From assembly GCA_043813585.1 (NCBI GenBank), contig JBDRKW010000006.1, forward strand, positions 149,741 to 213,740: a DNA stretch of 64,000 nt, given 5' to 3'. The DNA is from Candidatus Kerfeldbacteria bacterium (lineage in GTDB: Bacteria; Patescibacteriota; Patescibacteriia; UBA9570; XYC2-FULL-38-9). The notes beneath the pieces are model-generated. The model saw nothing but the letters and a program-made list of their open reading frames with translations. It was not told the DNA's origin and searched no databases. Shown in pieces: positions 2,444 through 50,080 of the stretch. Made by a program: the position numbers and the translations under genes. Positions within the stretch are counted from its first letter, which is position 1; each line of letters begins with the position of its first letter.

Positions 2444-3646
2444 CTAGATATTTTCGGTCACCTGGTAAATTGGCAATAATATGCCTGCAATCAGAATAAG
2501 CGCGCCGGCTCCAAGCACAAGCATAATTATCGGTTCAACAATGCTTACCAACGCCCCGGTAAGGGATTCAACCTCACTGGTGTAGAAATCGGAAATCTTA
2601 GCCAAAATCTGGTCCATCTTGCCGGTTTCCTCCCCGACACTGACCATTTGCGACAACATCAGCGGTATGTACTTACTCTGTTCAAGCGACTTCGACAGCG
2701 GCTGTCCACCTTCCACGTCTTTCACAGCTTTCTGCATGATTGACTTATACATGTCATTGCCGACAACATCGCCCACAATCGTGATTGCCTGGTTCACCGG
2801 CACGCCTGAAGCCAGAAGGTTTCCGAGGCTCCGCGATAAGCGCGCCAGGTAAATCTTGCGGAAAATAGTTCCGATAATCGGGATATGAAGCTTTGCGCGC
2901 CCAATAAACGTCTTGCCTGCCGGATTATTTATTGCAAAGAGGTATCCGCCGGCCAGGCCGCCGATAACAATAATAATCAGCCACCAGTACGAGGTAATTG
3001 CGTGGCTTACCCATACCAGGATGCGCGTCACAAGCGGCAATTCGGTGCCGCTCTGCGCAACCACGTCCAATAAATTCGGGATAACGAAAATCATCATGAA
3101 GATGAACACACCGCCGAGAGCGGCAACGATAAACACCGGGTAAATCATGGAGCTGATGATCTTCGACCGCAATTGGTAGTCTTTCTCCTTCTGGTCGGCC
3201 AGGTATTCCAGCACCTCGTCCAGTCGGCCGGTGGTCTCCCCCGCGCGGATCATATACACGAAAAAATCATCAAACACTTTCTCGTGCTTATGCATGGCCG
3301 CTGACAAACGTGCGCCGCTGTCTACGTCGTCGGCAACAGCCGAAATGACATCCTGGAACTTCTTGTTCTCAACCTGCTGGATAAGAATGCGCAGCGCCCG
3401 CACAATCGGCACGGTGGCGGAAATCAACACGGACAGCTGGCGGGCAAACAGCACGACATCTTTGGCCTTCACGCCTGTGAGGGAGATGCTGGCAATGCTA
3501 AAGCCGCCGCCTTTCTTGTGCGATTCGAGTAAAATGAGATTTTTCCCGCGGATAACCTCCTGGAGAACCGCTTCGGACGGCGCCTCCAATACGCCTTCGA
3601 CAAGGTTCCCCTGGGGATCGCGCGCCTTATAATTGAATTCGGGCAT
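2444..3646 (-). CDS. pilC: Type IV pilus assembly platform protein (GspF/PilC family)
   Basis: 400 aa with two GspF-like repeats and three TM segments. It lies between pilA and pilT. Confidence 0.85.
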   Translation of the reverse strand: MPEFNYKARDPQGNLVEGVLEAPSEAVLQEVIRGKNLILLESHKKGGGFSIASISLTGVKAKDVVLFARQLSVLISATVPIVRALRILIQQVENKKFQDVISAVADDVDSGARLSAAMHKHEKVFDDFFVYMIRAGETTGRLDEVLEYLADQKEKDYQLRSKIISSMIYPVFIVAALGGVFIFMMIFVIPNLLDVVAQSGTELPLVTRILVWVSHAITSYWWLIIIVIGGLAGGYLFAINNPAGKTFIGRAKLHIPIIGTIFRKIYLARLSRSLGNLLASGVPVNQAITIVGDVVGNDMYKSIMQKAVKDVEGGQPLSKSLEQSKYIPLMLSQMVSVGEETGKMDQILAKISDFYTSEVESLTGALVSIVEPIIMLVLGAGALILIAGILLPIYQVTENI

Positions 3647-14574: not shown

Positions 14575-14821
14575 AAAAATCGGGTTATGAACCCGATCAG
14601 CATAGAGGAATATTCATTTTGTTGCAATACGTCTGGCTTTACCGCCCGTTTCCCATTTCTCTGAAGCGAATGCTCGTTTCGCATCAGAGAGACGGGGCCG
14701 GGCCACTGCAGATCGTGTAGATTGCAGGGCCCGGCTTGAACTTCGTTCGTCCGTCGGTGCGCCGTGGTAGCGTGGCGCCGTTGCCACCGGCTTGCAGACC
14801 GGCGTTAAGCTCGGTTGTGCG

Positions 14822-15073
14822 CTAGCCGTTGAGGCCGCGCACGAACTGATCGGTGTCGACCGTGTCGCCGTCGGAGACCATCATCGGGGCGTAGGCGCCC
14901 ATGACGGGGGTCTTGACGAACTGCATGCGGATGCTGTCGACCAGGTCTGCCAACGCGTCGCGGACGTGGTCCACGGCCTTCTCGACCAGCGGGGTACCCG
15001 CAGGTGCGAAGCGGCCGATGACGGCGATGGCGAGGATGGACAGGACGACGAAGTTCGGGTTGGAGAGGCTCAT
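14822..15073 (-). CDS. Small (83 aa) hypothetical protein with an N-terminal hydrophobic helix; GC-rich
   Basis: About 65% GC in a roughly 50% GC context. A strong SD (AAGGGGG) lies 6 nt upstream of the ATG. Confidence 0.45.
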   Translation of the reverse strand: MSLSNPNFVVLSILAIAVIGRFAPAGTPLVEKAVDHVRDALADLVDSIRMQFVKTPVMGAYAPMMVSDGDTVDTDQFVRGLNG

Positions 15074-15443
15074 AATGGCCCCCTTTCGTAATCAGTCGTG
15101 TGCGCAGTCTCCCGGAGGACAAGCTCCCGCGGGAAACATTGCAACTTGTGTAGAACGACTGCTCGGTAGCGGTAGGGATGCATTTTGCTTTCAGCAAAAA
15201 ACGCAGTTCCCTCCCTTCACAGAGCAGCTGTCCTCAAGTGCTTAATTATTTCTCTCTCACTCTTATATACTCTCTCCTGCTCTTATTGCACAAATCTGTA
15301 CAAAAGAACGAAACAGCATAGCGCACTTTTGCTGTTTTGTCAAGAGTAAAAGACGGGATATTCGCTAATTTTAGCGAAACGATATATATGTTGGTTACCC
15401 TAGCAAAATGAAAAACAGCGATGAATTCAGCTCATGAACACCA

Positions 15444-15472
15444 TTGACAAAAGCCTTTTTTCATGATATCCT
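15444..15472 (+). promoter_or_regulatory. Sigma70-type promoter (TTGACA-17-TGaTATCCT extended -10)
   Basis: TTGACA at 15444-15449, 17-nt spacer, TG-extended -10 at 15464-15472. It lies upstream of the small membrane-protein gene. Confidence 0.4.
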
Positions 15473-15536
15473 ACTTGGTCTTTTACTCGAGGAGAGAGTT
15501 TCGAGGGAGGACAGCACCTTTGGAAGGAGAAACGTC

Positions 15537-15842
15537 ATGAACACGGTTTCCAAGACCATCCGTATCTGCACCAGCTTCGCGCTAGTGATCCTCGGCTACA
15601 TCCTGCTTCACAACATTTACGCCCACATCGATGCGATCATCGGCTGCATCTCGGCGTACGACGTGGAGCCGAGCTACACGCACGAATGGATCACTCGCGC
15701 GCTGATCTGGCACGTCAAGGAGTACGTCTTCGTGAATGGAGTGACCTGCTACCTGTTGATCGGCACGCTGATCATCAGGATGAACGCACGACGACTCTCT
15801 ACTGAACTCTTCCGTCTTGGGGAGGAATATAGGGAGGCATAG
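15537..15842 (+). CDS. Small (101 aa) two-TM membrane protein, unknown function
   Basis: Strong SD GGAAGGAG 6 nt before the ATG. Two hydrophobic helices and an RMNARRLSTELFRLGEEYREA tail. Confidence 0.5.
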   Translation: MNTVSKTIRICTSFALVILGYILLHNIYAHIDAIIGCISAYDVEPSYTHEWITRALIWHVKEYVFVNGVTCYLLIGTLIIRMNARRLSTELFRLGEEYREA

Positions 15843-15935: not shown

Positions 15936-16500
15936 GCCAGAGGAATGAAGCTCCCCGGGCTCACGCCCGGGGTATCTTTATACCCATACAAACTTCGTTT
16001 GTCCTTTGTCCTCTTTACCTTGCTGCTCTATATATTTTTCGATAGTATTTCTGTTGACTCCGACGGTAGAGACAAAATAGCCATCTGACCATATTCCCAT
16101 CTTGTCGTTCTCGTACATATGGCTAAGGAAAGGAAACTGCGTTCTCATGGCCTTTGCACTATTGCTTTTAAGAGTACGTACGATATCAGAAACAGCGTAT
16201 TTTGGAGGAATGACTAGAAGGAGATGGATATGGTCTTCATCCGTATTCATTTCAATAAGTTCAATATCAGGTTGTGTGTTGAGTATATTTTTTATAGTGG
16301 CCATGAGATACGCTCCCATGCCTTGTTTGAGTATCTTTCTTCTATATTTGGTGACAAAGACAAGATGGTATTGTGTATAGTAAATACTGTGCGCTTGTTT
16401 GCGGTATGCGATTGGTTCACTCATACTGTGAACATACCACGCTGCGGTAAAGAGGCCAAAGGCACAGCAAGGAACCCCGGGCTCACGCCCGGGGTATTGA
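15936..16500 (-). mobile_element. IS200/IS605-family insertion sequence (tnpA only)
   Basis: The identical perfect palindrome CCCCGGGCtcacGCCCGGGG occurs at both ends (15953-15972 and 16475-16494), flanking a Y1/HuH transposase gene. Confidence 0.75.
15978..16424 (-). CDS. tnpA: IS200/IS605 family transposase TnpA (Y1 HuH)
   Basis: YHLVFVTKYRRKIL and HIHLLLVIPP (HuH) motifs in a roughly 148-aa protein. Real start MSEPIAY at 16424. Confidence 0.85.
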   Translation of the reverse strand: MSEPIAYRKQAHSIYYTQYHLVFVTKYRRKILKQGMGAYLMATIKNILNTQPDIELIEMNTDEDHIHLLLVIPPKYAVSDIVRTLKSNSAKAMRTQFPFLSHMYENDKMGIWSDGYFVSTVGVNRNTIEKYIEQQGKEDKGQTKFVWV

Positions 16501-16515
16501 CTCCGTACACAAAAA

Positions 16516-49950: not shown

Positions 49951-50080
49951 ACTTCTCTGCCTGATGCGGTAAGAAGGGTAGGTAAACCGGGCAGGAATAT
50001 GGCGGGTTTCGGGCTAATAGAGGCCCGGGGCTCAAACGATCATAGTGATCCGATTCCTGTTTGGTGCACGAGGAGAAATC

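Follow-up and report, generated by a model that had tools for sequence, protein, structure and literature searches.

An IS200-group insertion sequence in a Candidatus Kerfeldbacteria genome, with identical subterminal hairpins and a covarying long-range helix

The window analysed here is a 64-kb stretch of a Candidatus Kerfeldbacteria (Patescibacteria) genome, and all positions given without a locus name refer to it. At 15978..16424 on the minus strand it contains tnpA, an intact gene with an ATG start that codes for a 148-residue Y1/HUH transposase. The predicted protein matches the Pfam model PF01797 (Y1_Tnp) with an E value of 2e-32 and the NCBIfam model transpos_IS200 (NF033573) with 128 bits, against a cut-off of 55, and it aligns end to end with the TnpA of IS608 (PDB 2a6m; E 3e-22). 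The HUH histidines (HIH) and the catalytic tyrosine (within YIEQQ) are in register with those of IS608 TnpA, and every position that is invariant in 24 relatives is kept. The annotation of a Candidatus Kerfeldbacteria MAG includes an identical protein; an exact-protein look-up in a different collection gave no match. The GC content of tnpA is 36-41%, compared with 50-56% in the surroundings, and this lower value suggests acquisition from outside. Elsewhere in the neighborhood, a block of 63-67% GC lies at 14600-15100 (context 50-55%) between ychF and a small open reading frame at 15444-15842, and contains short overlapping open reading frames only.

A -10-like TATGTT (16431..16436, minus strand), read from the sequence, follows TGG and lies 6 nt upstream of the tnpA ATG, with a -35-like TTGGCC at 16454-16459 of the same strand, 17 nt above it. 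The -10-like box beside the ATG is not called by a consensus promoter scan. Of 29 relatives, 26 have a TAnnnT box 4-9 nt before the start codon, and its conservation suggests that the tnpA mRNA may be leaderless, both in the window and in the clade.

The preliminary description of this locus reported an exact 20-nt palindrome on both sides of the transposase gene, and this is what is found: CCCCGGGCTCACGCCCGGGG is present at 15953-15972 and at 16475-16494 of the plus strand, in direct orientation. The exact direct repeat is 23 nt long (ATACCCCGGGCGTGAGCCCGGGG, ending in GGGGTAT), the TAT extending the palindrome on one side only. Read on the minus strand, the sense strand of tnpA and presumably the 'top' strand of the element, the copy at 16475..16494 is the left-end hairpin, CCCCGGGC-GTGA-GCCCGGGG, and the copy at 15953..15972 is the right-end hairpin with the same sequence. 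The two stems are identical, perfect and 8 bp long with loops of 4 nt, and each copy is predicted to fold into a hairpin of 8-9 bp with a z score of about -3.6 relative to shuffled sequences. No further copy of CCCCGGGCTCACGCCCGGGG is present in the 64-kb window even when 3 mismatches are allowed (0.02 expected), and a perfect-hairpin scan over its full length finds the GC-rich type with a TCAC/GTGA loop only at the two sites beside tnpA. The same scan finds no PATE, the name given to non-autonomous derivatives of the IS200/IS605 family (PMC7290912), of which the window element would be the autonomous form.

Both hairpins covary among relatives. In 60 elements, pairing is kept in 93.5% of cells at the left hairpin and in 96% at the right, and 7 of the 8 pairs of each helix covary. 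The right hairpin follows the tnpA stop codon after AGATA (15973..15977, minus strand), whose ATA is shared with the left end; immediately 5' of the hairpins stand AATA (left) and GATA (right). The AATA that ends the left leader and the ATA before the right hairpin occupy the position of the guide sequences of IS608, and by analogy they may act as guides. On the plus strand TATCTTTATA follows the right hairpin, and the hairpin scores there as resembling a terminator of incoming transcription. A stretch of 35 nt at the right end is 94-97% identical in loci from Elusimicrobia, Muribaculaceae and Patescibacteria; in the Elusimicrobia and Muribaculaceae IS200 relatives about 35 nt at the right hairpin are 94% identical whereas TnpA is only 50% identical, so that the right end is more conserved than the gene.

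The ends of the element were transferred from relatives that could be compared together with their flanks, P0002 (75% identical), P0003 (71%) and P0004 (73%). The P0003 element has its borders fixed by at least three different upstream and at least three different downstream flanks, which diverge, on the tnpA-sense strand, exactly at TTAGCAGAGCTAATA-hairpin and hairpin-AGTTTCATT; sharing begins at TTAGCAGAGCTAATA, 15 nt before the left hairpin, and ends at AGTTTCATT, 9 nt past the right hairpin. In the window this corresponds to an element of 566 bp on the minus strand, running from 16509 (TGTACGGAGTCAATA...) to 15944 (...AGCTTCATT). The left-end leader TGTACGGAGTCAATA (16495..16509) spans the 15 nt from the insertion point to the left hairpin and is the counterpart of TTAGCAGAGCTAATA in the relatives, and the right-end tail AGCTTCATT (15944..15952) forms the 3' end of the element, AGTTTCATT being the last sequence shared before three different flanks. 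The exact borders of the window copy are thus predicted by homology, and since its leader agrees with that of the relatives at 9 of 15 positions, the left border may be off by 1-2 nt. The interval of 15936-16500 proposed earlier was close, although the element ends lie instead at 15944 and 16509. The elements that are 73-75% identical (L121 and L132) have the same left-end architecture and a hairpin 5 nt past the stop codon, on contigs that stop at or just beyond the right hairpin. The P0003 element occurs on metagenome contigs (L122-L131) with its three upstream and three downstream flanks in five combinations, which points to assembly chimeras or to recombination across repeat copies.

The only long open reading frame between the element ends is tnpA, with neither tnpB nor iscB. 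The tips TGTACGG... and ...TTCATT are unrelated and form no terminal inverted repeats, and there is no target duplication, the flanks TTTTTG and CCTCTG not being duplicated. We conclude that 15944-16509 is very probably a complete insertion sequence with a single gene, belonging to the IS200 group within the IS200/IS605 family; the earlier assignment to an IS200-type element with a Y1 gene stands on the family models, the alignment with IS608 TnpA, and ends derived from independent insertions of relatives. The element is of an ordinary type, a further member of the IS200 group. Like IS200 and IS1541A it has a single tnpA coding for a Y1/HUH transposase, one subterminal hairpin per end, a left hairpin about 12-16 nt from the tip, and neither inverted terminal repeats nor target duplication, although their TnpA proteins are only about 32-35% identical to that of the window. 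At 566 bp it is shorter than IS200 with 707 bp (PMC4513863), and element lengths in the clade are estimated at 531-570 bp with a median of 546 bp. IS200 also has a 70-nt 5'-UTR stem-loop that hides the ribosome-binding site, for which the window element has no room, and the -10-like box is found instead.

The element starts immediately after TTTTTG, and its insertion target is the intrinsic terminator of a cupin gene with its T-run and G16510 (16510..16543, minus strand; stem 16543-16531 / 16523-16511). Related elements show similar settings. In five of six related contexts a hairpin and T-run are followed by G or A at the left border, and in 13 of 29 further contexts TTTT is present there, compared with 11% of control 15-mers. 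Borders of relatives defined by at least three different flanks per side lie after TTTG, TTTA or TTGG, and the one copy of IS1541A examined in Yersinia likewise follows a hairpin and T-run. From these border contexts, insertion appears to occur 3' of a T-rich word (approximately TTTR), typically in the tail of an intrinsic terminator. The empty site is predicted, on the minus strand, to be CGGGATTCTTTTTG joined directly to CCTCTGGCTACAATCG.

By analogy with IS608, a TnpA dimer would bind both of the identical subterminal hairpins on the single-stranded tnpA-sense strand. The dimer would cleave the left end behind the host TTTTTG, about 15 nt before the hairpin on its 5' side, and the right end behind ...TTCATT, 9 nt past the hairpin on its 3' side, and so excise the element as a single-stranded circle. 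Re-insertion would occur 3' of a T-rich tetranucleotide (TTTR), typically in an intrinsic terminator whose T-run is exposed on the template for the lagging strand. The choice of the tnpA-sense strand as the active one is suggested by the spacing, since 15 and 9 nt resemble the 19 and 10 nt of IS608 only on that strand (PMC3201880); this strand specificity and the exact cut sites would hold in the window element as far as the analogy does. The GC skew of the plus strand is negative throughout the window, and from this the tnpA-sense strand presumably lies on the lagging-strand template, as expected for the family. The Helicobacter pylori element IS608 also resembles the window element in having near-identical left and right hairpins, asymmetric cut sites (far 5' at the left end, near 3' at the right end) and insertion 3' of a short target word (PMC3201880). 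It differs in that the window element lacks tnpB, has perfect stems with no extrahelical base, and has the T-rich target TTTR in place of TTAC.

A further structure, outside the original claim, joins the two ends of the element. Arm B (CCTTTGGCCTCTTTACC, 16446..16462, minus strand) lies between the left hairpin and the ATG and overlaps the -35-like TTGGCC, and arm B' (GGTAAAGAGGACAAAGG, 16003..16019, minus strand) lies near the 3' end of tnpA, inside the codons for G-K-E-D-K-G. On the sense strand the two are 94% complementary over 17 nt, with one mismatch. Next to arm B', the last codons of tnpA (Q-T-K-F-V) contain a mini hairpin, ACAAAC-GAA-GTTTGT (15988..16002, minus strand). Both the minimum-energy and the centroid folds of the single-stranded element DNA, of either strand, contain the long-range helix, both end hairpins and the mini hairpin, with z scores of -3.7 and -4.3.

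The helix is a feature of the clade. Three close relatives keep the pairing through compensatory changes that fall on synonymous positions. In a set of 83 elements the longest exact complementary run between the 5' region of an element and its own 3' coding end averages 10.5 nt. When the same 5' region is compared with other segments of its gene the average is 5.9 nt, and with 3' ends taken from other elements it is 6.2 nt. In a MAFFT alignment of 60 full elements made with no structural input (alignment A2), the helix corresponds to columns 84-107 with 554-570; its core of 8 pairs is 95% paired, and four core pairs each show 26-35 double changes with 4-6 pair types. When the 3' partner is slid by 1-3 columns, pairing over all four helices falls from 89.7% to 35-44%. 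The variable codon within E-D-x-G is tracked by its upstream complement (AGC/GCT, ATG/CAT, TCA/TGA and others). Mismatches in the helix, compared with a view to finding the strand under selection, comprise 29 G-T and 18 A-C. Homologues of the mini hairpin are 82% paired, with a switch from GC to AU in 8 of 60 elements. Its GAA loop closed by C-G, within codons Q-T/A-K-F/L, is conserved across the clade. IS1541A lacks the long-range helix, its longest complementary run being 7 nt and lying outside the element. No account of such a helix was found in the literature searched, a search that did not extend to ISfinder and TnPedia.

Tentatively, and regarding it as less than probable, we propose that the helix (about 10-17 bp) and the mini hairpin act on DNA as a scaffold for synapsis in cis. 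As a corollary, the Rfam motif Acido-Lenti-1, discussed below, would be a DNA repeat of the REP/REPIN kind on which Y1 transposases act, and not an RNA gene. The helix and the mini hairpin would draw the left and right hairpins together on the top strand when it is single-stranded, and so pre-assemble the substrate of the TnpA dimer. If the -10-like box is the promoter, the tnpA mRNA would be leaderless and arm B would lie outside the transcript, which would favor a role at the level of DNA. The helix may instead act in RNA, because transcription of the Salmonella IS200 starts just past the left hairpin (PMC4513863), and the mismatch counts and the derivatives without tnpA described below favor neither role.

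We infer that the window copy may be mobile at present, although an intact copy need not be moving, since IS200 itself is notoriously inactive (PMC4513863). It can be argued that this is a true IS200-type element that has become an immobile single-copy resident, fossil or domesticated, in which the hairpins serve mainly as transcription insulators. There is one copy in the window, the exact TnpA protein is recorded on one contig only, the right hairpin with its T-rich stretch scores as a terminator on the plus strand, and the left hairpin of the Salmonella IS200 is a bidirectional terminator in an element that seldom moves (PMC4513863). However, every functional part of the window copy is intact, from the catalytic residues and the two ends to the helix with its one mismatch in 17, its GC content well under that of the flanks argues for a fairly recent arrival, and the close relatives are multi-copy. 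We consider an immobile resident to be unlikely, though with some real weight, and favor the reading of the locus as a complete IS200-group element.

The palindrome itself is widespread. In a scan of one genome per species, at least 120 stretches (loci L001-L120), belonging to many phyla, contain the exact 20-mer, so that although within the window it occurs only beside tnpA it is common in other genomes. A small group among the listed matches are right ends of IS200 relatives in Elusimicrobia and Muribaculaceae. In another Patescibacteria genome a stretch of about 150 nt (L067, 3240-3385) has two hairpins and no tnpA: the right end consists of AATGAAGACT, the hairpin and TATCT, and about 105 nt away is a left-end-like hairpin with one base different in the loop, followed by TATTTGG. 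The pair again adjoins a hairpin-TTTG target, and to judge by its sequence L067 is a PATE-type non-autonomous derivative; its predicted stem differs from the long-range helix. One Desulfobacteraceae MAG contains, in three different contexts (L020 1449-1524, L057 70-145 and L089 2596-2671), an element of about 110 nt with two hairpins. The hairpins of this element are 36 nt apart, its right tail is GTATCTACT, and its targets are not T-runs. Two Elusimicrobia loci (L033 2350-2385 and L073 84-119) contain the palindrome between ATGAAACT and AGTTTCAT, giving a perfect palindrome of 36 nt built from the right-end tail of the insertion sequence on both sides. The 63-nt spacing of the palindrome in a Planctomycetia locus (L050, 4732-4877 and 5854-5936) was considered as a CRISPR array and rejected; the 'spacers' are identical, and the array is therefore a tandem repeat.

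The large remainder of the listed matches, from Acidobacteriota, Verrucomicrobiota and Planctomycetota, score 55-59 bits with the Rfam model RF01687 (Acido-Lenti-1), the first hairpin of which can be the same 20-mer. The original description places this motif in Acidobacteria and Lentisphaerae and, in some cases, close to group II introns, and a 2026 preprint still called its function unknown. We counted 164 hairpins in the genome loci, on the strand with the GTGA loop in hairpin 1, and the tetranucleotide preceding the hairpin is GTAG in 34, ATAG in 21, TTAG in 17 and CTAG in 6. This NTAG (mostly GTAG) lies on the strand opposite to the Rfam motif. Neighboring copies within 300 nt form 24 inverted and 13 direct pairs, and many of the inverted doublets are 105-146 nt apart. 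Examples of the motif are at L025 4918-4963, L093 2638-2683 with 3262-3307, and L104 3860-4056. A GTAG before the palindrome and arrangement as inverted doublets are hallmarks of REP/REPIN repeats, and the Acido-Lenti-1 motif looks like a DNA repeat of this type, which we regard as a lead and not as a result. A Y1 profile search of the 120 loci identified one IS200 (L026), one bona fide REP-associated tyrosine transposase (RAYT) gene (L104), which scores above the cut-off and lies 1 kb from an inverted doublet, and one weak open reading frame (L049), which is probably decayed. The inverted pair in L093 encloses no Y1 transposase. Three Y1 matches are too few, and we do not claim a linkage of Acido-Lenti-1 with Y1 enzymes.

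These repeats raise the question of whether the window locus might instead be a RAYT gene whose palindromes are REPs spread by the enzyme. It shares with REP/RAYT systems a Y1-family enzyme and GC-rich hairpins recognized as single-stranded DNA, and identical palindromes of this kind lie on both sides of the gene, the same 20-mer being abundant as a dispersed repeat in other phyla. Nevertheless, the window protein reaches only 31 bits with the RAYT model NF047646 (cut-off 80), far from its 128 bits with the IS200 model, the hairpins are direct and not inverted, there is no other copy within the 64 kb, AATA and GATA precede the hairpins in place of GTAG, and the relatives are discrete elements with fixed ends. 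A RAYT locus is thus very improbable. Likewise very improbable is a reading of the palindromes as two copies of the Acido-Lenti-1 small RNA with the transposase gene merely situated between them: many RF01687 matches have exactly this 20-mer as their hairpin 1, but the window copies do not match RF01687 (15000-17500 at E up to 1; the whole window at the gathering score), lack the CTAC linker and the second hairpin, and are flanked by conserved ends of the insertion sequence. Rfam finds at this locus only sub-threshold, leader-like noise near the cupin terminator.

The preliminary description also placed a related hairpin-like remnant about 34 kb away, and suggested that this sequence near 50.02 kb is a REP-like or solo-end relic that marks a second insertion point of the same element. 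Neither proposal is upheld. The sequence in question, GGCCCGGGGCTCA (50022..50034, plus strand), is intergenic and contains the GCCCGGGG of the palindrome, followed by CTCA, but this 8-mer is all that the two have in common, and its expected number per window is 2.66. Aligned with the first 13 nt of the palindrome it differs at 3 positions, and the window contains 14 matches of this quality in all, where 21.7 are expected. There is no complementary arm at 50.02 kb, the region folds like shuffled sequences (z scores of -0.3 and -0.9), and it has neither the conserved ATA that precedes the hairpin on the 5' side nor the conserved AGYTTCATT that follows on the 3' side. The refuting condition named in the preliminary description holds within the window, where the palindrome is confined to the tnpA locus and the similarity near 50 kb is not significant. 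The similarity is at chance level, we reject the remnant as a part of the element, and a relic of a second insertion is scarcely conceivable here.

The IS200-group element at 15944-16509 matters little as an annotation, since it adds one more member of the IS200 family in a Patescibacteria lineage with reduced genomes. Elements of its clade are shorter by about a quarter than IS200, which was still named the smallest autonomous insertion sequence in a paper of 2015. If Acido-Lenti-1 is a REP-type DNA repeat, then an orphan Rfam 'sRNA' would gain an explanation. The part worth following is the clade-wide helix. If the scaffold is real, it would be a cis-acting aid to synapsis that is undescribed for IS200/IS605 elements, and the covarying helix would offer a mutable handle on how a single-strand transposon joins its ends, or controls its transposase.
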